From sequence record NC_048112.1: a DNA stretch of 42,042 nucleotides; one strand, written 5' to 3'. The notes under the pieces were generated by a model. It was not told the DNA's origin, made no database searches, and saw nothing but the letters and a program-made list of their open reading frames with translations. The stretch is from Escherichia phage Skarpretter. The first letter of the stretch is position 1. Every line of letters starts with the position of its first letter. A program made the position numbers and the translations under genes. Below are positions 17-34,973 of this stretch, one piece after another.

Positions 17-42
17 CCAAAAAAAACGCCCCGGAGGGCGTT
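17..42 (-). terminator. rho-independent terminator after the 41..769 gene
   Basis: On minus strand: hairpin ACGCCC-tccgg-GGGCGT followed by T8; overlaps the stop codon of the 41..769 ORF. Confidence 0.7.
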
Positions 43-769
43 ATTTGTAGTTGGCGTCAAAGACGGCTTGCGCAAAGCCCCGTGGGGTGCAACTGCGTAT
101 GTTCTTTGTGCGTAGCGACTTGCCGCCGCAATGCTTCCAGCCGGGGTTGTGTTTCACACCGTCCACTGGCTTACGCTCCGGCATGGCAAAGCCACCGCCG
201 CACCAAATCCCGGTGAGTTTGTTGTAGCCGTCGCGGGGCGGGTAGACTTCGGGGTAAAGCGGGTGCGCGTCGTCCTCCGGCAAATAGCCGCCGTACTCGT
301 TCGGGTGGAATTTATGATCCGGGCGTCTCCACATCGTATTGAGTTTGGAGATCGCTGGGTTCTCAAGCATCCACGCGGGCATGGCGTTTGCTTTGAAACC
401 ATCCAGCCACCAGCAACGCCGGGCGACGCGGTAAACCAGTTTTGCGAGGTCTACGGCTTTCTCCTGGAATAGCGGATCAACCTTCGCTTTTGCAGGCCAC
501 CAGCGCGCCCCGGTGCAAGTAAGATCGGTACACTCGGCAAAGCTGGCGATAAACACAACGCCCTGGCCCACTGTCTTTGCGATCTCCGTCGCCTGGTACG
601 GATTGAACGGAGTAAACCAGGTGCCAACGCGCACCAGTAACGGGTTATGCTCGTCGCGGTGTACGCCTGGCGCGTGCTGCCCGTCGAATAACCAGCATTC
701 AACCCCGGCATTAAGCCAGGGTTGTGCCATTATTCCCGTGCGATCGAATAGGAATACGGCCTTTTTCAT
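41..769 (-). CDS. hypothetical protein; weak C5-cytosine-MTase-like resemblance, unconfirmed
   Basis: 242-aa ORF. N-terminus LFDRTGI...AGVECWLFD resembles C5-MTase motif I/II region and WMLENP resembles the ENV motif, but no PCQ motif (FNPYQ at the equivalent place). TAATG coupling with upstream ORF. Confidence 0.45.
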   Translation of the reverse strand: MKKAVFLFDRTGIMAQPWLNAGVECWLFDGQHAPGVHRDEHNPLLVRVGTWFTPFNPYQATEIAKTVGQGVVFIASFAECTDLTCTGARWWPAKAKVDPLFQEKAVDLAKLVYRVARRCWWLDGFKANAMPAWMLENPAISKLNTMWRRPDHKFHPNEYGGYLPEDDAHPLYPEVYPPRDGYNKLTGIWCGGGFAMPERKPVDGVKHNPGWKHCGGKSLRTKNIRSCTPRGFAQAVFDANYK

Positions 770-1005
770 TACGCCTTATCCTCTGCCTGATTGGTCGCTA
801 ATTCCTGCTCGCGCTCGGTGCCGGAGATAGTTACCCAGCCCATGATCCCCAGGTCTGCAAACTTGCGGATCTGGTTATCCCAAATCATATTGACGAGGAT
901 TTGATCCTCCCAGGTGGTGACGCTTTCGGCGGTTGCGTTTCCGCCTGCCTTTAGCTGGTTAAATTGGTCTACGGTAATGTCGCGGGTATTAATGGCGATT
1001 TTCAT
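769..1005 (-). CDS. hypothetical protein
   Basis: ORF with ATG at 1005 preceded by GTGAGG Shine-Dalgarno; stop overlaps the next start. Confidence 0.5.
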   Translation of the reverse strand: MKIAINTRDITVDQFNQLKAGGNATAESVTTWEDQILVNMIWDNQIRKFADLGIMGWVTISGTEREQELATNQAEDKA

Positions 1006-1237
1006 TTTTAGCCTCACTTAACTTTAATTCTACGTAGTCTTTTTCCAGCATCGCCGCCCATTCTGATTGCGGGCGCGGTTTATAATCCTGCTCGTAACTC
1101 ATATCTAATGAGTCGGCAAAATCTGCGGCATCTTCTACGCGTTTAAATTCACCTTTTGCCAGCATGAAGCCAACAACCATATATTTAAAGGTGAGCCATT
1201 GGACGTGCGCCCCGGTACTACGTTTAGCCGTTGCCAT
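989..1237 (-). CDS. hypothetical protein
   Basis: 82-aa ORF, ATG at 1237, same-strand operon context. Confidence 0.5.
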   Translation of the reverse strand: MATAKRSTGAHVQWLTFKYMVVGFMLAKGEFKRVEDAADFADSLDMSYEQDYKPRPQSEWAAMLEKDYVELKLSEAKNENRH

Positions 1238-1246
1238 TATTCCGCC

Positions 1247-1831
1247 TTATACACGAGCGGGCATTACGGCATATTCCGCAACGCCGTTTGTTGAATTGAT
1301 GGTAATAAACGCCGCGTCGGTTGCGTTTTGCAGCGTTATTTTAACGATACTGCTTTTCATTTTAAGCGCCTTGCAGATACGCGTTACCGTGGCGAAATAT
1401 TCCACGTTAAAGCCGATCTCCGTTACGCCTGCGCGGCCCTCTTTCGGCGTGATGAATACGCGGTTAAAGTCAGGGTAGCGCCCGTCTACAACGTCAACGG
1501 TGCCAACTGCAACGCGTGCGGCTTTCAGGTCTAACCCTTCCAGATCTTCGGCCTTGTCGTAAGGCATTGCCAGCCAGTACACGATCCCGGCGTCAGTGTC
1601 GATCGCCGCCGTCTCGATCCCGCGCATTGTTGGCACGGCGGAAAGTTTCAAAATGATCCCCTCGTCCGGCGCGTTGATCAGATCTTCGGTGATACGTAAA
1701 GCGCGGTGCCCGTCCGTTGCCTGCACCTGGTTTTTAATGAAGTGTAAGCCGTTCAGGTAGTAGCGCACGTCAAACTTAGCTTGCGCCAGCATAGCGGCTT
1801 TAATGGTTGCGGCCTTCGCATAAATCATCAT
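1247..1831 (-). CDS. DNA polymerase III beta sliding-clamp (DnaN) homolog, truncated: domains II-III only
   Basis: 194 aa; by-eye alignment to E. coli DnaN from ~residue 130 to the C-terminus: DVRYYLNG, ATDGHR, VDGRYPDF (DnaN VDGRFPDY), EIGFNV, AEYAVMPARV (DnaN AAYVVMPMRL). AGGAG SD 9 nt upstream of ATG. Confidence 0.7.
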   Translation of the reverse strand: MMIYAKAATIKAAMLAQAKFDVRYYLNGLHFIKNQVQATDGHRALRITEDLINAPDEGIILKLSAVPTMRGIETAAIDTDAGIVYWLAMPYDKAEDLEGLDLKAARVAVGTVDVVDGRYPDFNRVFITPKEGRAGVTEIGFNVEYFATVTRICKALKMKSSIVKITLQNATDAAFITINSTNGVAEYAVMPARV

Positions 1832-1877
1832 GGTTTTTACTCCTGCGTTTATTGCCCCGTTTCCGGGGCTTGTTGGT

Positions 1878-2549
1878 TTAAAACACGCTCGCTACTGCGT
1901 CGCGCATTTGCTGCTGGGTAATGTACTCGGTTTTAACGGCACCAGCCTTGCGGGGCCGGATTACAAACAAGGCGCTTGCCTTGCTGTTTTTGCTCGCTTC
2001 TGAGCCGTTGGCGGCGTTGACAAAAGCAACGCGCCCATTGAAAAACTTTGCTTCGCCTTTCTTGTCCGTGCCGTGGTAGCCCATAATGTTAACCACTTCA
2101 CTTGCGACGTTGATCAGCTCGTAAAACCATTCTGGCGAATGGTCATGATTCAGGAGCATAACCGTAGTGACGCCGTTTTGTTTTGCATTTCGTGCGGCGG
2201 CTTTTACCCACGGGAGCGGATCGGCGTAAGGAGGATTGCACCAGACAACATCCCCTTTCTTACCCCAAACCGTGTTGGGGTTTAACGCGTCTTGCTGTTC
2301 GTCGATAAACTCAACACAAAGGGCGTTGGCTTTCTCTGCCGCTACGTCACGCGCAAACGGCCCCCACTTCTGATCAGACCAATTAAAGAGCCATAACGGC
2401 GTGCGCCACTTCTGGCGGACTTTATCTGGCGTCTTACTGCCTGCAAAGCGACGGCCCGTTACGGCTGTATCTGCGGCGGCTGCTGCGTCCTCTGCGCCAG
2501 TGGTGCCGGACTCGTGATCAATGGTGGAGGTGTCGTTAGTGTCTTTCAT
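1878..2549 (-). CDS. DNA N6-adenine methyltransferase (phage Dam family)
   Basis: 223 aa with VVWCNPPYADP (NPPY motif IV of N6-adenine MTases). Confidence 0.8.
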   Translation of the reverse strand: MKDTNDTSTIDHESGTTGAEDAAAAADTAVTGRRFAGSKTPDKVRQKWRTPLWLFNWSDQKWGPFARDVAAEKANALCVEFIDEQQDALNPNTVWGKKGDVVWCNPPYADPLPWVKAAARNAKQNGVTTVMLLNHDHSPEWFYELINVASEVVNIMGYHGTDKKGEAKFFNGRVAFVNAANGSEASKNSKASALFVIRPRKAGAVKTEYITQQQMRDAVASVF

Positions 2550-2552
2550 GGT

Positions 2553-2996
2553 TTACGCCTTTTTGTTATCGGTTGAGCCAAAGCCGTTTGCGCCGCGTGC
2601 CGTTTTCTTTACGGTGTCAACTTCTGTTAACACTACGCGGGGCACTGGCACCAACATTGCCTGGGCTTGCGCTTTGGTGAGGTCGATCGGCGGATATTCG
2701 CCAGTAGGGCGATCGCATACCAGTTTGATCGCAACTTCTCCGGTGTAGTCTGAGTCAATGATCCCCACACAATTACTTAACCGGGTGTCGTTTTTGAAGC
2801 CCTGCCCGCTGCGGCTGTAAATCATCAGGGCGTAACCCTCCGGGATCTCGAAAACAAGCCCCGTTTCCAGGTAAATCGCGTTGTTGCGCTCGTCTGGCCT
2901 GGCGGCGATCGCGTAAATGTCGAAACATGCTGATCCCTCTGTTGCGTAGGTTGGCATTACTGCGTGGGGTGAGTTGCGCTTAACGTTTAACTGCAT
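2553..2996 (-). CDS. dut: dUTP diphosphatase (dUTPase)
   Basis: 147 aa; trimeric dUTPase motif GIIDSDYTGE, N-terminal PTYATEGSA; AGGAG SD. Confidence 0.85.
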   Translation of the reverse strand: MQLNVKRNSPHAVMPTYATEGSACFDIYAIAARPDERNNAIYLETGLVFEIPEGYALMIYSRSGQGFKNDTRLSNCVGIIDSDYTGEVAIKLVCDRPTGEYPPIDLTKAQAQAMLVPVPRVVLTEVDTVKKTARGANGFGSTDNKKA

Positions 2997-3041: not shown

Positions 3042-3893
3042 TTACTTAACGCTGATCATCGGGGTCGCTGCGCCGGGGATCATGGTTGCAGGTAATTTAC
3101 CATCCCACTTATCGGCTTTGGTGTATTCCACCAACTGCGGGTTAGCCTGCAACGCTTCGGATTTGGCTTTAATCGCTGCCGCTTCTGCGTCGCCTTTCAT
3201 CTTGATAGCGTCCGCCTCTGCCTGGGCGTTTGCACGTTTAGCATCGGCTGCGCCTTTTGCTTTGGTGCGGGCAATGTCTGCGCTGATCTGCTCTTTCTGC
3301 AAGTTCTGCTGTTGCGTGCGGATCTCGATCTCGGCTTTCATGTTCTCCTCGATCTTGTCGTTGTACTCTTTGGAGAATTGAACGTTTTCAATCTGCACGG
3401 AGTCGATCGTAAAGGCTTTGCTTACGCTGGCCTGCAAACCCTTCTGGAAGTCTGCCGCCAGGGCGTCACGCTTGATCACGCTGTCCGCTGCGGTGTACTT
3501 ACCAAAGGCCGATTGAAAACGGGCCGGAGCCTGGCGATCAATAATGCGCTCTACTGCGTTCTCCGCCGTGCGGTACTCGCTGTAAATGTAACCAACGCTC
3601 GCGGCTGGGATCGAGTAGGTCACGGAGTAACGCACCGTCGCGTGCTGCTGGTCGCGGCTGTTACCGTTGCCCTTTTCGAAAACGCGCGTATTCTGTTGCA
3701 CGCTGATTTTTTCCACGCTGTCCAGGAAAGGCGTTTTGAAGTGTAAGCCCGGCTCCGCCGTGCCAATCACCTTGCCGTTACGGAGGATTACGCCGCGCTC
3801 GCCCTGGTCGATAATGTACCAGCTACCCAGCGCCGCCATGAGGCCAATAATGATCAGGAGAATTAAACCGCCGCCAACAATCTTTAATTTCAT
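3042..3893 (-). CDS. SPFH/band-7 (HflC/HflK, prohibitin-like) membrane protein
   Basis: 283 aa; N-terminal TM helix (GGGLILLIIIGLMAALGSWYII), SPFH-like core, C-terminal Ala/Glu/Lys-rich coiled coil; own promoter element and own terminator. Confidence 0.75.
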   Translation of the reverse strand: MKLKIVGGGLILLIIIGLMAALGSWYIIDQGERGVILRNGKVIGTAEPGLHFKTPFLDSVEKISVQQNTRVFEKGNGNSRDQQHATVRYSVTYSIPAASVGYIYSEYRTAENAVERIIDRQAPARFQSAFGKYTAADSVIKRDALAADFQKGLQASVSKAFTIDSVQIENVQFSKEYNDKIEENMKAEIEIRTQQQNLQKEQISADIARTKAKGAADAKRANAQAEADAIKMKGDAEAAAIKAKSEALQANPQLVEYTKADKWDGKLPATMIPGAATPMISVK

Positions 3894-4035: not shown

Positions 4036-4066
4036 GCCGCCCCGTTTTGGACGCGGCTTTTTTTTA
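4036..4066 (+). terminator. possible rho-independent terminator (plus orientation)
   Basis: GCCGC-12 nt loop-GCGGC followed by T8; long loop, overlaps 3' end of the minus-strand primase gene. Confidence 0.35.
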
Positions 4067-4894
4067 CCCAAACGCCCCCACCAGATCCGCGCCAGCCATT
4101 ACCCGCCCGCAATCCCGGTATAAATAAACCTCGTCCGGGTCAAGCGCCACCATGCGGATCTCACGATCGCCAGTGTACCGCGCCGCAACCTCCCGGCAAT
4201 TCAGCGGAGTAAAGCCGATCCAGATCTCGCACCCCAGCGCCGGGCCTTTGTGCTCTGCCACTCGCACCGCCATTACCGGATCGCTGATAAGGTAGATTGG
4301 CCCATCTTCCAGCCCTTCGGCTGGGTGGATCATCGCAACCGCGCCCCAGGTGCGGAAACCTGCCGCAAACTTTACGGAGAAGTCAGGATCAACCCGCGCC
4401 AGATTGCAGAAGAAAGGCGACGCGCCAGCCTCGCCAACTTTCCGGCATGGTAGATAGGCTGATCCGGGCCTCCTCCCAGCGGTAGCCAGGTTTATTACGC
4501 GCTCGTGTGGGATCTCGGCACTGGCGGCACCCTGCTTTGATTTGGCAAGCGCTTTGGAGGCTTTGGCGATCTGATCCATCTTCGCCGGGGTCAGCCCGCC
4601 GATCCAATCCCCCAAATCATTTACCGCTTCGTTAAACTTCTGAGCGCGGGCACGCATAAACCAAAACATGCCGTCATGCGAGCCGCCGCAATCGCCGGAG
4701 CAATAGGCGAAACCCTCCTCACGCTGGCGCGGTTTCTTGTGCCCCCATCGGAAACGGTCAACGCCACCACATACCGGGCAAGCCTGGTGGTTGCCGTCAA
4801 ACGTCTTACGATCCCAGCCGCAAAGCTCCAATAAGGCTTGCTCCCAGCGGTTACGCATGGCGTTTAAAACTGTTTTCTTGTCGTGTATTGCCAT
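4064..4894 (-). CDS. DNA primase (zinc-ribbon plus TOPRIM-like)
   Basis: CPVCGG...CSGDCGG zinc-ribbon like primase Zn-binding domains; C-terminal acidic DPD motif (MVALDPDE) consistent with TOPRIM; likely ATG at 4894. Confidence 0.55.
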   Translation of the reverse strand: MAIHDKKTVLNAMRNRWEQALLELCGWDRKTFDGNHQACPVCGGVDRFRWGHKKPRQREEGFAYCSGDCGGSHDGMFWFMRARAQKFNEAVNDLGDWIGGLTPAKMDQIAKASKALAKSKQGAASAEIPHERVINLATAGRRPGSAYLPCRKVGEAGASPFFCNLARVDPDFSVKFAAGFRTWGAVAMIHPAEGLEDGPIYLISDPVMAVRVAEHKGPALGCEIWIGFTPLNCREVAARYTGDREIRMVALDPDEVYLYRDCGRVMAGADLVGAFG

Positions 4895-4916
4895 AATCAA
4901 CAAAGCCCGTTACTAT
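4888..4916 (+). promoter_or_regulatory. putative sigma70-type promoter for helicase operon
   Basis: TTGCCA-17 nt-TACTAT followed by a CTCAAAC element, ~40 nt upstream of helicase ATG. Confidence 0.35.
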
Positions 4917-10346: not shown

Positions 10347-10372
10347 GGGGCCATAGCGGCCCCTTTTTTTTT
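10347..10372 (+). terminator. rho-independent terminator, likely bidirectional
   Basis: GGGGCC-atagc-GGCCCC followed by T9; lies between convergent HTH gene and tailspike gene. Confidence 0.8.
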
Positions 10373-12620
10373 ATGCCGGAGTAATGAAGGTGATCGGCTT
10401 GGTCGCGGCTAACTGAGTGCCCGCCGCCGTCGCCGTAGCGATAGGGTGAGCAATGTTAATGCGTACCGGGGAGGACGGCACGCCCTGCGAGGTGTTGTAA
10501 GGCCCACGCGTGATCCACGTCTGCAACGCTGCACCGCCAGCGCCAGCGCCCGGAATGGTGATACGGGTTCCCGGCGTTAACGGCTTGCCATACATCCACG
10601 GCGCGGAGGACTTGTTACCATCCCAATCTACGTTGCAATCAACGTAAGTGTTTCCCACGGTGGTTGCCTTGATCTGGAAATCAGCCGTTGCCGGAATGTA
10701 CGCCCCGGACACGGTGACACGGAAAAATTTTCCGTCCGCACGCTGCACCAGATCCCCGCGCTGAAACTCGCGCCCGGTAGGGAATGCGTTGCTGTCAAAG
10801 TTCGGGTAGTTCATTTCGTCCGGCGTCGGCATGGTGTAAATCTGGTTTACGTTCCCCACCTTCACACCGATCGAGCCGTCGATCCCGTTATACTGGCGCA
10901 TATCCGCGTACACGTTGGAGCCGATCGACGTGATGTTTGTATAGCTGCACTGGCTCCAGCCCTGATCCGCAAAGCCGTTTTCGTCGTAGAAATTCACGTT
11001 AATCATACGCAATACGGACTTACCACGGATAAAGCGCCCGTTTGACGTGGTGCCGCCTGCGGAGTCGTTGCCGATACAATCAAAAACGGTGCCCGTAATG
11101 TTGGACATGTTCAGCATTGACGCCACGCCAAAGAGCGTTAACTTGTAACAGCGGATATTTTCAAGGGTGTACGTGTTCGGCGTCACCATGATCCCGTTAC
11201 TGTCGGCGTTTGCTGCCACACCACAATAAACGCGGCCCTGTTTGGTGCTTACGTTGCGTACAACCATATCAAAGCACGGGTTAGACGGTGCGCCAGCGGT
11301 TACGCCCCACTCCAGCATAACAATACGCACATCATGAGGATCGGCGGTGGTTACTACTGGCTCGCCGTATACGCCGTCAATGGTGATCCGTTTGCAGCCG
11401 TAGGCGATCACGGTGGACATGGTAAGCCCGGTGCCGTTCGAAACGTTCTGGTTTGGGTCGCCGTGGATGTTCTCGATCGTACTGTCGCGGGTCACTTCCA
11501 GGTGTAGGATCTGGCGCACGCGGTTTGCAAAGACGTTGCGGATCGCAAAGTTTTTGGCGTATTGGCTGTCTGGAATATCCCAGCCGTAAGGCCCGGCCCC
11601 GGCGATACCGATCCCGATACCCCAGTTTGAGTTGGCGATCGGGGTTTGCCCGTTCACGTTCTCCATGTAGATCCCGTCAATGACGCAACCGTAATCAAAG
11701 TTGGCGTTAACTACGTTAAACTCCAGGCAATCGCCGCCCACATTGTAGAATGAAAGGTTACGGAATACGCCGCGCTGTACGTCGCCGCTACCCTGCATTA
11801 AGAAGCCGAACAAAGTATTTCGAAACTCGGTGTCGGTCAGTTCGAAAGAGTCGTTTGTAGTCGGTGAAGCCTGCGCCACGATCGAGCCTGCTTTAGACGC
11901 GGTTACTTCGCCGTCGATCAGGCAATCCCTGATCCGGTTGTTGCCACCCCAAAGCATGATGCGCAATTTATTGATGATCGCACCTTCTAACAGGATGTTG
12001 GTGATCCGCCAGTCTGCGGTGCCCTGCCAGGTGCCACCCTGGATCGTGATGCCGTCCGCCGTTACGGTGCTTTCAAGTGTGCCCGTCCAGCCATACGCAT
12101 AAACGATCTTTTTGTTGGCTTTGGCGTAATCAAACATGGCTTGAATTGCCGCGCTCGTGGTCGTGTACTCGTCGCGGCTGGTGAAATCCCACGGCGTAAC
12201 GAAACCTTGCAGGCGGGTTTTTAACGTGCCCTCGGTGGTGCCAACGTATTCCCAGCCCGTAGGGGATTGGATCACCTGCCACATTTGCGCCGCGTCGTAC
12301 TCTAACAGGTTGTCAAAGTAGTATTGCAACACGTTCTGGCGGTTATATACCGCCATGCTGCACCCGGTTTGAGTGACAAAGCGGCCTACGCTGCCCTGAT
12401 AAACAGGATAACCGGAGGCATTGATCTTGATCGGCTGCGGGATCGGGGTGAGGGTTAGATCCTCATTCTCCCAATACACTTGCACCTGGTTTGCTGGATC
12501 AACCGGGTTAGTGTCGGGCTTGCCGATATAAATATCACCGTCCGCAATAGCCGCGAATTTATCCACCTGGATAAACGGCGAGGACGGCATACGCACGGCG
12601 GCGTAAACGGTATCAACCAT
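10371..12620 (-). CDS. tailspike protein with P22-type head-binding N-terminal domain and beta-helix receptor-binding domain
   Basis: 749 aa; N-terminal ~110 aa aligns by eye with P22 gp9 head-binding domain (IYIGKPDTNPVDPANQVQVYWENED...SMAVYN vs P22 [25 protein letters not shown]...SMAIYD); remainder Gly/Asn/Thr-rich. Confidence 0.85.
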   Translation of the reverse strand: MVDTVYAAVRMPSSPFIQVDKFAAIADGDIYIGKPDTNPVDPANQVQVYWENEDLTLTPIPQPIKINASGYPVYQGSVGRFVTQTGCSMAVYNRQNVLQYYFDNLLEYDAAQMWQVIQSPTGWEYVGTTEGTLKTRLQGFVTPWDFTSRDEYTTTSAAIQAMFDYAKANKKIVYAYGWTGTLESTVTADGITIQGGTWQGTADWRITNILLEGAIINKLRIMLWGGNNRIRDCLIDGEVTASKAGSIVAQASPTTNDSFELTDTEFRNTLFGFLMQGSGDVQRGVFRNLSFYNVGGDCLEFNVVNANFDYGCVIDGIYMENVNGQTPIANSNWGIGIGIAGAGPYGWDIPDSQYAKNFAIRNVFANRVRQILHLEVTRDSTIENIHGDPNQNVSNGTGLTMSTVIAYGCKRITIDGVYGEPVVTTADPHDVRIVMLEWGVTAGAPSNPCFDMVVRNVSTKQGRVYCGVAANADSNGIMVTPNTYTLENIRCYKLTLFGVASMLNMSNITGTVFDCIGNDSAGGTTSNGRFIRGKSVLRMINVNFYDENGFADQGWSQCSYTNITSIGSNVYADMRQYNGIDGSIGVKVGNVNQIYTMPTPDEMNYPNFDSNAFPTGREFQRGDLVQRADGKFFRVTVSGAYIPATADFQIKATTVGNTYVDCNVDWDGNKSSAPWMYGKPLTPGTRITIPGAGAGGAALQTWITRGPYNTSQGVPSSPVRINIAHPIATATAAGTQLAATKPITFITPA

Positions 12621-24146: not shown

Positions 24147-24191
24147 ACTATAGCCCCATCCGTGGGGCTTGTCTTTAGCAAAAAGTGCTAT
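24147..24191 (-). promoter_or_regulatory. conserved promoter element driving the 24100 unit
   Basis: Minus strand ATAGCACttttTGCTAAA, 23 nt, TATAGT, ctcCTCACAttcac. Confidence 0.6.
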
Positions 24192-26428
24192 TCCTGGTTT
24201 GCGCTCTGCGCCGCTGCATTCAGGAGGCGATCCGCGTTGCGCTCGTCGGCCTGCTGCTGGTCGCGGGTAAACTGCTGCATAAGCTGGATCACTTCCACCA
24301 GCTGATCGTGCTTAATGCCTGCGGTTTTGGCGATGGTTTCCAGCGTCTGCGCGTCGGTCAAGCGTCCATCTTTCGCGGCTTTCTCTGCGGTCACTTGCAG
24401 GTTAAGCGCTTTGATGTTCAGATCCTTATCTTTCAACGCCAGATCGGTTTGCTTGTTCTGCGCGTTCATCAGATCAGCCGTGGCTTTCTTGTCCTCTGCC
24501 ATTGCTGCAACCATCATTGGATCAGGCTGGTTCTGTTTCGCTTCCTGCGCCTGCTGCAACATCGCTTTTTCTTCGTCCGTTTCCGGCTGAATAATGCCGT
24601 TCATAATCATCTGATTACGGCTATATTCGCGGAAGTCCTGCAACCCTTCGCCGTCCATGTTCATCAGGATCAGGCTCATGACGATCGCCGCGTTAGGATC
24701 TTGCGGGTTCATGGATTGTAACAGGTTGGTGAGGTTGCGCACCGTCGCCTGGCGGCGGGTTTGGCTGCTCTCGCCTACGCTGCTCTCAACTTCGTATTTG
24801 CCTTTGGTCAGGTCGTTTAGCGCGATCTGCTGTTTGGTCTTACGGTCGATTACTGCGCCCTGTAACAACACCATATCGTCGCTGCCGTCCTCATTCACGA
24901 CGCGGACATAATCGACGGAGCCGTAAACCTCGCGGGCCATTTCGAGCCATACTTTGCCAGCGTGGCGCAAGGATTTTGCGAGGTTGTCCATATACAGCGC
25001 CCCTTGTCCGTCCATGCGGGCAAAGATTGCCTCCACGGTTTCGGTTGCAAGGTTCGACGGCATAGATTCAACCTGGCTTGCGCCTACGATCTGTTGAATG
25101 GTTCCGCCCGTGTACTGGAGGATCGCGGCAAGGTTCGCGTTTAGCGGCGCTGAGGGGGTATAACCCAGCACGCCACCCGGCGCAATGATATTGCCTTGAT
25201 CGTCGCGCAAGCTCTCAACCGGAAGGTAAGCCGGGCGCTCCTTGTTACGGTTGCCCCACGCGTTAGCCAGCGGGCCGGGCACCATGTTTACATCAAGGAT
25301 CGGGATATTGTCGCCGCCTGCCTGGGTGGCGTTGTCCGCCAGCATGGAAACGATCAGGTTTTCCAGGCGCTGCGCGTCGGTTGCCAGCGTGGCGTGCCCT
25401 GCGATCCTTTCCTGGTTGTCAACGAATGAGCGGCGAGCGTATACCGGGATCAGCGGAATGTAACACCCTGGGATGCGCTCCATTGGCTCCAGCCATTCGC
25501 CACCACTGAGGACGCCGCAATAGATACGAGGTTTTTTTACTTTGCGCTCTTTGCCCTTTTTAAACCCGGCGTCGCGTAACTCGTCCTCGATCTTGGCGAT
25601 CTGATCTTCCTCATAAACCGCCGTTTCTTGCGTCATGGGGTTTTGATAGCTGATCACGGTGACTTCCTCGATCCGCTTCTCATAGTAGCGGGCAAGGTAT
25701 ACCGCGTCCGGCGTACACCAATCAAATTGCTTGCCAGTGTCCAGCATTTCGAGGCTTTCCGGGGCCATAGCCGTTGGGTATTGCTCCTCGTATGCGTCCG
25801 GGTCAATGCTGAAAAGCTCCGTTGCCCACATAGCATCGCTGCGATCGTACTGCTTTGAGTTCTGATCAAAGAATACGCACGACGCCGGATCGTATACCGG
25901 GTGGAAAGTAATATGCCGCGCTTCGCTGTCCGGGTTGTACTCGTCCTCTAAACAGGTGTCCATGCGGAAGCAACCAAACCCGCCCGTTACCGCGTCGTCA
26001 AAGGCGTTATCGATCGCCTCGCACCCGCTGGACTCGTTGAAGTCGGCGCGAAATTTGCCGTTCAGCTTGTCGGCTAACTCCTCGGACGCTTCGCCGTCTT
26101 TCGGGCGATAGGTGACGTTTACGCGGTTTAGGCGGTAATCGGTGATAATGCGATCGACTTCACGCGCCAGCTTGTTAAGCTCAAAGCGCGGGTATTTTTT
26201 AAACCGATCGTCGTCCATGTTCCAGCCGGAGTTGGTCGATCCTTCCCATTGTGCGCCGGGCACGCGGACGAATCGCAACACCTCGATCATTTTCTTACGG
26301 CTGGTTTCCTCGTTCGCAAACTGCGTTGAGATACGTTTACGGGCGCGGGCGTGTTCCTTGTCCTCGCTCTTGCTCATTTTACGCGGGGTTTTCCCCTCGT
26401 TGGTTTCCAGGTCGTTACGGTCTGCCAT
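24188..26428 (-). CDS. portal protein (P22 gp1-like)
   Basis: ~746 aa; YRPKDGEASEELADKLNGKFRAD (P22 [22 protein letters not shown]), FFDQNSKQYDRSDAMW (P22 IWDSNSKLMDKSDARH); likely ATG at 26428 with AGGGGAG SD. Confidence 0.85.
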   Translation of the reverse strand: MADRNDLETNEGKTPRKMSKSEDKEHARARKRISTQFANEETSRKKMIEVLRFVRVPGAQWEGSTNSGWNMDDDRFKKYPRFELNKLAREVDRIITDYRLNRVNVTYRPKDGEASEELADKLNGKFRADFNESSGCEAIDNAFDDAVTGGFGCFRMDTCLEDEYNPDSEARHITFHPVYDPASCVFFDQNSKQYDRSDAMWATELFSIDPDAYEEQYPTAMAPESLEMLDTGKQFDWCTPDAVYLARYYEKRIEEVTVISYQNPMTQETAVYEEDQIAKIEDELRDAGFKKGKERKVKKPRIYCGVLSGGEWLEPMERIPGCYIPLIPVYARRSFVDNQERIAGHATLATDAQRLENLIVSMLADNATQAGGDNIPILDVNMVPGPLANAWGNRNKERPAYLPVESLRDDQGNIIAPGGVLGYTPSAPLNANLAAILQYTGGTIQQIVGASQVESMPSNLATETVEAIFARMDGQGALYMDNLAKSLRHAGKVWLEMAREVYGSVDYVRVVNEDGSDDMVLLQGAVIDRKTKQQIALNDLTKGKYEVESSVGESSQTRRQATVRNLTNLLQSMNPQDPNAAIVMSLILMNMDGEGLQDFREYSRNQMIMNGIIQPETDEEKAMLQQAQEAKQNQPDPMMVAAMAEDKKATADLMNAQNKQTDLALKDKDLNIKALNLQVTAEKAAKDGRLTDAQTLETIAKTAGIKHDQLVEVIQLMQQFTRDQQQADERNADRLLNAAAQSANQE

Positions 26429-26478
26429 TCTCGGCGCTCCCCTTGTTGATTCTGGCAAAGTCTAACATGATGCGAAAA

Positions 26479-33401: not shown

Positions 33402-34973
33402 TCAGCGTTCAGCCAGCGGCGGCGGCGATGCGTCGTTAGCCGTCAAAATCTCCTCGCCGTCATTGTTGATAAACGAGCGGATCAGCTGCTTTTTGATCGC
33501 GTTCTCGATCGAGCGCTTGATCTGGTATGGCGTTTTCGCGGTGCGCTCCGCCATTTGGTTTGTGGTGTCCATGCGTTCATGCTGCCCGCCGCGTGCCATG
33601 AGGAAATCGATCACGTCCTGCTCGCTGTTGCTCGGCCTGGTGAGTCTCGGATCTGGCTTGTTCTTCGACTCGCCGCGCTGCGCTTTCTTCTGCTCCTCCT
33701 GCTGCGCTACCAGTTCAGCGGCTAACGTCGCCTCGTCCACCAGTTCGCACGCGTTCAGGTAGCCACCACAAAACAGCGGGTCAATCGGGTTAAGTCCTTT
33801 CAGCGGCTGCGCTGGGCGGATCGAATCCTCAAACTCTGCGAGATATTCCGCCCGGTGCGCTTCTGCTTCGTCGTCCGGGAAGATCTGCATTGTCCGTTTA
33901 GTCAGGCGCAAGAGTTGGGCGATCCCCCCACCACGGCGCTTGCCTGCTGCCATGATGATTTTATCCGGCTGGGTTTTGTCCTGCGTGAGCGAAAACGTTT
34001 TCCAAACCGCACCCTTTGCCGCGCCACCTCCGCGTGACTCCAGCACGAGATAAGGCGATCGCTCGGCCTCCTTGCTTACGTGGGGAATGAAGATCCCGCA
34101 CGCTCCCAGCGCCAGGGCAAAGCGATAACCGCAAAACGTAATGTACTGCTGATCGTCGTTGCTGTTTTCGTCCAGGGGTTTACCGTTGCGCTCGGCGCTG
34201 GATAGGTGAAAACTCTTTGAGTCATAAACAACCATGCACACCTGGCGATCCCCGGCAAAGTCTTTGATCTGGCGGATCTGGCGTAATGCGTTCTCACCCC
34301 ATACCGGGCGATCGAGTTGTACGACGCGCTCAACCTCGCGCCCGTCCGGGCCGATCTCTTTCACGGTCTTAACTTTGGTTGTGTCGGTCAGCGCTGCGGG
34401 GTGCTCGCAGATCAGGACGTGATCCAGGATGTTTTCGCCCCACTCCAGTTGCCAGGCGGAAAGGCAGTTAGTGACGGTTTCGGCGTCCTCGGTAAAAAAC
34501 ACGCTGATCCCTTTCTTCACCATGAAAGCATCCAGGAAAGGTCTACCCGTTGCCACGCACGCCGCCAGCATGGACAAGAGCGTAGTTTTGCCCACGCCTG
34601 GCCCGGCGTTGATCTCGTTGATCGTGTTCATGTTAAACAGGTATTGCACAAACGGCTTTGGGATCTTCGGTTTCGGGTTCTCAATGAATACGGAGGCGGG
34701 CTTACGCTCCGGCTTTGGCTGCTGCGGGCCTGCGTCCTCGTTGTCCGGCTCGTCCACCTGCTCGGAGTGATCGGCAAGGCGTGCTAACTCCGCGTCGCTA
34801 TAGTCGGGAGCCTGCGCCGCTAACCACTCCTCCGGCATGTCCGGCACGGTGTCGCCCAACTCTCCCCAGGTCTGCATGTCCTCGTAATCCGGCTCGAATT
34901 GCTCCGGCTCCGGGGTTGGCTCCTGCTGCTGTAAAGAGCCGTTGCCACGGTGTTTTGTGGGGTCGAATTTCAT
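33402..34973 (-). CDS. P-loop NTPase (RecA/DnaB-like Walker A), possible replicative ATPase/helicase
   Basis: 523 aa; acidic disordered N-terminus, Walker A NAGPGVGKTTL, Walker B-like VCMVVYDS; first gene of leftward operon. Confidence 0.65.
   Translation of the reverse strand: MKFDPTKHRGNGSLQQQEPTPEPEQFEPDYEDMQTWGELGDTVPDMPEEWLAAQAPDYSDAELARLADHSEQVDEPDNEDAGPQQPKPERKPASVFIENPKPKIPKPFVQYLFNMNTINEINAGPGVGKTTLLSMLAACVATGRPFLDAFMVKKGISVFFTEDAETVTNCLSAWQLEWGENILDHVLICEHPAALTDTTKVKTVKEIGPDGREVERVVQLDRPVWGENALRQIRQIKDFAGDRQVCMVVYDSKSFHLSSAERNGKPLDENSNDDQQYITFCGYRFALALGACGIFIPHVSKEAERSPYLVLESRGGGAAKGAVWKTFSLTQDKTQPDKIIMAAGKRRGGGIAQLLRLTKRTMQIFPDDEAEAHRAEYLAEFEDSIRPAQPLKGLNPIDPLFCGGYLNACELVDEATLAAELVAQQEEQKKAQRGESKNKPDPRLTRPSNSEQDVIDFLMARGGQHERMDTTNQMAERTAKTPYQIKRSIENAIKKQLIRSFINNDGEEILTANDASPPPLAER

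Follow-up and report, generated by a model that had tools for sequence, protein, structure and literature searches.

The beta sliding clamp (DnaN) is the hub that gives the replicase, the clamp loader, Hda, mismatch repair and the translesion polymerases access to DNA. The dimer interface of the Escherichia coli clamp pairs I78, R103 and F106 of domain I with I272, L273, E298 and E304 of domain III, and its clients dock in a pocket for which we took the 18 residues listed in a review, comprising subsite I (R152, L155, T172, G174, H175, R176, L177, P242, R246, V247, V360 and M362) and subsite II (H175, N320, Y323, V344, M362, P363, M364 and R365) (PMC11139829). Three cases show that phages target this hub or its supply: Gp168 of phage Twort, solved in complex with the host clamp (PDB 7evp); the lambda small RNA PreS/LPR1, which raises dnaN translation (bioRxiv 10.1101/2024.10.31.621285); and MuC of phage Mu, which is reported to enlist the host beta clamp (PMC12867686). 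In this study, a short DnaN-like gene was investigated in Escherichia phage Skarpretter (NC_048112.1), whose 42,042 nucleotides (nt) form the window analysed here. Its product, hereafter the mini-clamp, probably binds clamp partners rather than encircling DNA, because the parts of the ring have been lost while the partner pocket is nearly unchanged.

Homology and architecture of the mini-clamp

The open reading frame (ORF) that an earlier sequence-only reading had proposed is present on the minus strand and encodes 194 amino acids (aa), about 21 kDa, and all five motifs quoted by that reading occur in the translation: DVRYYLNG at residues 21-28, ATDGHR at 38-43, VDGRYPDF at 115-122, EIGFNV at 138-143 and YAVMPARV at 187-194. 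The curated thresholds of the DnaN families were not reached, with Pfam PF02767 matching at E=0.0034 and 18.1 bits (cut-off 27) and NCBIfam TIGR00663 at 23.8 bits (cut-off 137.65); neither PF00712 nor PF02768 matched in the Pfam scan, so that the Pfam check suggested by the sequence-only reading came out positive but sub-threshold for PF02767 and negative for PF02768. A phmmer search of the PDB matched 29 beta-clamp sequences (best E=8e-7), and a hidden Markov model (HMM) of the family, built from 166 members, scored 99.9 bits on E. coli DnaN. Foldseek matched the mini-clamp to E. coli beta at E of about 1e-7, the alignment taking about 272 columns for a query of 194 residues, with about 75 gap columns in all. 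The AlphaFold2 (AF2) monomer was compact and confident with 23 sequences (predicted local distance difference test, pLDDT, 85.9), and with 63 sequences it reached a pLDDT of 95.0 and a predicted template modelling score (pTM) of 0.90 with identical secondary structure. The fold is that of a processivity factor (DNA clamp), and all strong structural matches were clamps. Identity to E. coli beta is 31% over 154 aligned positions, and the nearest full-length relatives are gammaproteobacterial DnaNs, from which the mini-clamp is derived. All evidence combined, its DnaN homology is unambiguous, and the proposed relationship and fold therefore withstood both the profile and the structure searches.

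The relationship is not collinear. Residues 1-129 correspond to about DnaN 130-251, which is domain II and the connector (the aligned stretch proper being 7-129 to 136-251), and residues 136-194 to DnaN 314-366, where the second of the two beta-alpha-beta-beta-beta halves of domain III lies. Nothing in the mini-clamp corresponds to DnaN 254-314, which makes up the first of these halves, or to any part of domain I. A sub-profile of the C-terminal part of the family scored 34.1 bits on DnaN 310-366 (the C-terminal half of domain III, III-C) against 5.1 bits on 249-314 (the N-terminal half, III-N); for the three further half-domains reported the score was about 0 bits or lower. The mini-clamp is thus about 1.5 clamp domains, consisting of domain II, with its second helix turned into a loop, and the C-terminal half of domain III. 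It is not the three-domain DnaN of about 366 aa, and the earlier description of a two-domain II-III protein aligning continuously from about residue 130 of DnaN to its C-terminus has to be revised accordingly. DSSP assignments of the AF2 models place strands at residues 2-6, 29-32, 35-39 and 43-48 and a helix at 7-14 in the first half of domain II. In its second half, helix alpha2 (DnaN about 197-208) is replaced in both models by a Pro-containing loop at residues 64-73, with no helix predicted between the strands at 59-63 and 74-78. An 18-aa insertion at residues 88-105 (nt 1517-1570) is found in only about 13% of the family.

No domain I is supplied from upstream, since the dam gene ends 46 nt away and tblastn searches of the whole window with DnaN 1-125, as with DnaN 254-314, returned nothing (all E>1). 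The absence of domain I claimed by the sequence-only reading therefore stands, and so does its view of the product as a DnaN homologue without that domain. All seven named dimer-interface positions fall in the segments that have no counterpart, and every named interface residue is therefore missing. Judged from its sequence, the mini-clamp cannot form a head-to-tail dimeric ring of the normal beta type, in agreement with what had been proposed. The trimer in the style of PCNA or gp45 that had also been suggested finds no support: that arrangement takes protomers of two complete domains, and a protein of about 1.5 domains, with three half-domain units and not four, removes the basis for it.

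The client pocket in a widespread phage family

We observed that identity to E. coli beta is concentrated in the client pocket, with 14 of 18 pocket positions identical against 33 of 136 other aligned positions (Fisher p=1.5e-5). Both subsites are recognisable at the sequence level. Across 148 family members of less than 60% mutual identity, mean column conservation was 0.73 in the pocket and 0.38 outside it (Mann-Whitney p=3e-6), and ten of the 16 most conserved columns were pocket residues, namely R152, L155, T172, G174, H175, P242, Y323, M362, P363 and R365. The C-terminus lies no more than four residues from the MPxR motif in 138 of 158 short members, as it does in beta. A small subgroup of about 215-250 aa (P0187, P0190, P0199, P0215 and P0256) carries 15-55 aa beyond MPxR, and these tails share the pattern P-[DEA]-[FW]-[VL] (IPDFVNF, IPDWLVRL, VPEFVKH, PADFVNH and LPAWLATA). 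Such a tail, which the Skarpretter protein lacks, could occupy the pocket of the protein itself or else bind a partner. Members of about 245 aa have the mini-clamp architecture with disordered C-terminal tails and are not true two-domain forms.

The mini-clamp is not peculiar to Skarpretter but belongs to a widespread phage family. With tblastn, homologues were found in 225 of 50,697 GenBank phage records, including those of Hungariovirus, Segzyvirus, Dhillonvirus, Gorganvirus, Klebsiella siphoviruses such as ZCKp20p, and Serratia phage Eta, and relatives are encoded on 398 contigs of IMG/VR, where the window itself appears as the complete contig IMGVR_UViG_2974511094_000001 of 42,042 bp. The family comprises at least 150 clusters at 50% identity, its members being about 165-215 aa long, and it is under selection. 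An exhaustive profile search of 1.84 billion representatives gave 10,486 matches at E<=1e-3, full-length DnaN included; the best 150 of these were all of 110-236 aa, and all but five had at least 165 aa. In a second profile search the short members scored 95-189 bits and full-length gammaproteobacterial DnaNs 75-94 bits, and no domain fusions were seen among the 120 profile matches listed. Additionally, the mini-clamp fold is shared by many short viral proteins in BFVD that are named 'Pol III beta'. The Skarpretter protein matches PHROG 3007 at E=2e-39 over residues 1-194 and shows the length and the motifs of the short family (DVRYYLNG, TxGH, DGxYPD, IGFNxxY and MPxR).

The names given to these genes in GenBank vary between 'DNA polymerase III beta subunit', 'RusA-like Holliday junction resolvase' and 'hypothetical', the last being used for the homologue 'gp7' of the closest named phage, Escherichia phage C130_2 (Hungariovirus). 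A RusA identity, as the label of PHROG 3007 has it, was rejected, there being no PF05866 signal in Pfam and only clamps among the strong structural matches. The 'RusA-like' labels, found for example at L004 4941-5477 and L006 4941-5480, look like a propagated annotation error, which our results correct, together with the assumption that short phage 'Pol III beta' genes act as processivity subunits. Since GenBank records already carry the beta subunit label, the DnaN homology itself is not new. Our literature searches retrieved no paper on the 1.5-domain architecture, on the loss of the ring interface or on the selective retention of the pocket, and none with a functional test; the family seems unstudied.

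Gene neighbourhoods and proposed function

We consider the mini-clamp most readily understood, with a probability of roughly 0.55, as a pocket-only protein outside any ring that binds the clients of the beta clamp as a decoy or an adaptor. The retained unit lies around the boundary of domains II and III, being made of the N-terminal half of domain II, its helix-less C-terminal half and the C-terminal half of domain III, and is the one that carries the hydrophobic pocket in which beta binds QLxLF-type peptides of Pol III alpha, delta, Hda, MutL, Pol II, IV and V and others. The loss of domain I and III-N removes the head-to-tail interface on both its sides, along with one helix that faces the DNA. 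We infer from this a monomer, either free in solution or tethered locally, to which clamp-binding motifs would dock early in infection, in the replication phase. As a decoy it could compete with host beta for at least one client, taking over or neutralising host functions; as an adaptor it could link phage replication proteins to a client of the host, for instance the clamp loader or Pol III. Among the three options offered by the sequence-only reading, that of a decoy for clamp-binding partners fits best, the client pocket being the most conserved part of the family. Host clients (Pol III alpha or epsilon, delta, Hda, MutL or MutS, and Pol II, IV or V) are the more likely ligands, since the phage neighbours change from lineage to lineage whereas the pocket hardly differs from the one in the host clamp. 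Moreover, the affinity of delta has been reported to be about 50-fold higher for the beta monomer than for the dimer (PMC11139829), which makes the clamp loader a plausible target.

In Skarpretter, the leftward operon runs primase, SPFH protein, dUTPase, Dam, mini-clamp, two small ORFs and a second methyltransferase-like gene (Table 1), so that the dut and dam neighbours named by the sequence-only reading are indeed there. The divergent operon opposite encodes a helicase, a VRR-NUC protein, a RecE-like exonuclease, Erf, SSB and endonuclease VII. The replication and recombination genes (Dam, primase, helicase, RecE-like, Erf and SSB) are presumably T1-like, going by T1-type gene sets, while the portal and tailspike indicate a podovirus-like morphogenesis. 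No ORF of the window is long enough for a DNA polymerase and none has a polymerase domain, and the phage therefore needs host Pol III. Neither the mini-clamp nor its neighbours matched a PADLOC defence model. In the related phage C130_2, no ORF is annotated in the interval between primase and dUTPase in which Skarpretter has its SPFH gene. The product of ORF 41-769 shows no homology to the Nmad5 of Dhillonvirus (E=0.32).

Table 1. Features of the mini-clamp gene and of other Skarpretter genes in the window.
Feature	Position (nt)	Strand	Basis or remark
Mini-clamp coding sequence	1247..1831	minus	194 aa; stop codon 1247-1249, ATG 1831-1829
Shine-Dalgarno sequence AGGAG	1840..1844	minus	8 nt 5' of the mini-clamp ATG; direct sequence reading
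Residues 1-48, N-terminal half of domain II (beta-alpha-beta-beta-beta)	1688..1831	minus	hmmalign; about DnaN 130-181
Pocket motifs in residues 1-48	DVRYYLNG 1748-1771; ATDGHR 1703-1720	minus	
Residues 49-115, C-terminal half of domain II	1487..1687	minus	About DnaN 182-237; mapping and column occupancy
Residues 116-136, domain II-III connector	1424..1486	minus	Pocket motif (V)DGRYPDFNRV 1457-1489, matching DnaN 237-247
Residues 137-194, single beta-alpha-beta-beta-beta unit, III-C half	1250..1423	minus	DnaN 315-366; sub-profile scores, phmmer alignment
Motifs in residues 137-194	EIGFNVEY 1397-1420; C-terminal YAVMPARV 1250-1273	minus	
242-aa protein, second putative methyltransferase in the Dam operon	41..769	minus	PHROG 757 'DNA methyltransferase' E=3e-65; no Pfam family
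82-aa gene, phrog_2676 (function-less label)	989..1237	minus	Starts 10 nt past the mini-clamp stop codon
Dam-type N6-adenine methyltransferase	1878..2549	minus	Pfam PF05869 E=5e-41; PHROG 111
dUTPase	2553..2996	minus	PHROG 135 E=2e-43
SPFH/Band 7 membrane-scaffold protein	3042..3893	minus	Pfam Band_7, E=5e-33; between primase and dUTPase genes
Primase	4064..4903	minus	Pfam Zn_Ribbon_Prim
P22-type portal (E=1e-159) and tailspike with P22 head-binding domain	10371-12620 and 24188-26458	minus	
523-aa AAA_25 ATPase	33402..34973	minus	Weak PHROG helicase-primase matches; far from main replication cluster

In other lineages the surroundings differ. The order in Serratia phage Eta is SSB, ParB-like, mini-clamp and helicase, and a ParB-like gene (phrog_1033) stands one to three genes upstream of the mini-clamp in 34 loci, including those of Segzyvirus LPSTLL and Klebsiella phage ZCKp20p. 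In 23 lambdoid metagenomic phages the mini-clamp lies between a lambda-like cII and an O-like initiator with DnaB helicase (the L021-L039 group, e.g. L025 5500-7600). The cII-O interval is a known variable slot of the lambdoid early right operon. No nucleotide match to the mini-clamp gene of these lambdoid phages was found in complete E. coli genomes. In Dhillonvirus the gene sits beside Nmad5 (PF18757); the order of the two is swapped between the Dhillonvirus-like loci L003 6120-7456 and L010 2705-4064 but they are always adjacent, which suggests a functional coupling. Mutations in nmad5 have been reported to allow escape from the Tmn defence system (PMC11846954). The common denominator of these contexts is early or replication-associated expression, and no phage partner is constant among them. 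The adaptor is favoured by the location in replication modules and by the want of a phage polymerase, whereas Dhillonvirus, which encodes a polymerase and carries the gene in a cassette apart, speaks for a more general role in takeover or against the host.

Several observations weigh against a pocket-only receptor of host clients. No phage ligand was found: a strict clamp-binding motif (QLxLF or QLxLxF/L) occurs in none of the 61 ORFs of the window, and relaxed matches in the window proteins number 3 against 3.8 +/- 2.0 expected. Pocket residues are also the best conserved in full-length DnaN, and part of the pocket enrichment is thus an effect of homology detection. Despite this caveat the contrast is clear in the sequences, where the pocket is retained and the ring-forming elements are discarded. 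The Dhillonvirus carriers have their own DNA polymerase and the gene lies inside the structural genes, so a role limited to the recruitment of host Pol III is not general. Phages that depend on the host replisome would themselves be harmed by a decoy that draws off Pol III alpha or delta. Finally, the family is more basic than beta (median isoelectric point, pI, 8.1 against 5.25) and keeps lysine or arginine on both helices (K11, K19, R151 and K154 at 0.66-0.80), and a direct contact with DNA that does not encircle it, as in herpesvirus UL42, is therefore possible.

The alternative that survives best, though it is unlikely at present, has the pocket hold a phage-specific or non-canonical partner (the ParB-like protein, Nmad5, Dam, an O-type initiator, or single-stranded or primed DNA), the mini-clamp then perhaps belonging to a phage complex for DNA modification or for the initiation of replication. 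The recurrence of neighbours is in line with it, as seen for the ParB-like gene, for Nmad5 in either order and for Dam in Skarpretter, and so are the equivalents of Y153 and Y154, which lie off the pocket list and are conserved at 0.76 and 0.97; in the beta-DNA structure these two residues contact DNA. The neighbours, however, differ by lineage while the pocket stays near that of host beta, and a common host ligand fits this better. In a motif scan of neighbour families covering 86 loci, Nmad5 showed no clamp-binding motif even with the relaxed pattern. Dam had none either when every protein of the window was scanned with the strict and the relaxed pattern. The ParB-like proteins carry QMHLSL, which fits the hexameric clamp-binding consensus, in 32 of 34 cases (L002 5609-6424, L004 3693-4553 and 30 similar loci). 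Judged by its position this match is probably coincidental, because it falls inside the folded helix-turn-helix domain HTH_ParB and comes from near-identical phages.

Quite doubtful is a DNA-encircling or DNA-embracing clamp of new stoichiometry, in which orphan domain III halves would pair two-fold to give a dimeric half-ring, perhaps even a D2 tetramer of 12 units. On purely geometric grounds this can be drawn, since a clamp domain consists of two pseudo-symmetric beta-alpha-beta-beta-beta halves and the mini-clamp has three, with 3 x 4 = 12; the basic family, the conserved basic residues on both helices and the location of the gene in replication modules would also suit it. Against this, the AF2 monomer is compact and very confident without a partner, the channel-lining helix is lost from one of the three units, and the native interface residues are all absent. 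The pockets would point to both sides of the ring, unlike those of any known clamp, the Skarpretter subgroup tolerates its 18-aa insertion at the would-be edge strand, and no clamp-loader gene is present. Marginally less probable still is the fuller form of this idea, in which twin orphan halves rebuild a domain III and the resulting half-ring or D2 tetramer, with pockets on both faces, is used by host Pol III on phage DNA.

That the mini-clamp joins a host beta protomer and so blocks the closing of rings, the capping entertained by the sequence-only reading, is improbable: a clamp fold with exposed edge strands would lend itself to it, but both halves of the native interface (domain I and DnaN 254-314) are missing, and a phage with no polymerase gene needs the host Pol III holoenzyme. 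Very improbable, lastly, are a full-length phage dnaN in decay, of which the gene would be a remnant, and a resolvase of the RusA type, for although full-length phage DnaNs exist and PHROG 3007 and many GenBank records bear the resolvase label, length is uniform and the motifs are strongly conserved over at least 150 clusters at 50% identity in several phage lineages, and Pfam gave no RusA signal.

Comparison with known clamps and clamp-directed phage factors

Compared with E. coli beta, the mini-clamp shares most of the pocket and the C-terminal ending of MPxR followed by a hydrophobic residue, and differs in having 194 aa in place of 366 and in lacking domain I, III-N, the second helix of domain II and the dimer interface. 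Full-length phage DnaNs (gp28 of Burkholderia phage KL1, 386 aa; BFVD entries of 345-400 aa) bear the same GenBank label as the mini-clamps, but their lengths fit a three-domain clamp, and the KL1 gene directly adjoins a phage DNA polymerase gene. PCNA and the gp45 of T4 and RB69 have two complete domains with an interdomain connecting loop and are trimeric, whereas the mini-clamp consists of three half-domains with DnaN-like sequence. The herpesvirus processivity factors UL42, UL44, BMRF1 and PF-8 are not known to form closed rings, hold a peptide of the polymerase in the equivalent groove and bind DNA by a basic face. They are a possible functional analogue for the adaptor, though each consists of two full domains without sequence relationship to the mini-clamp and has a virus polymerase as partner, while Skarpretter encodes none.

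If the pocket-only reading is true, the mini-clamp would be a natural minimal scaffold of the pocket through which beta is an antibiotic target, and it may be useful for structural and inhibitor work. A widespread phage family that copies only the docking pocket of the hub would moreover represent a new way of taking over the host, in which an interaction site is mimicked. This would set it apart from the phage factors known so far: Gp168 binds the clamp, MuC is reported to enlist it, and PreS raises its supply, whereas the mini-clamp would instead mimic the client-binding site of the clamp itself.

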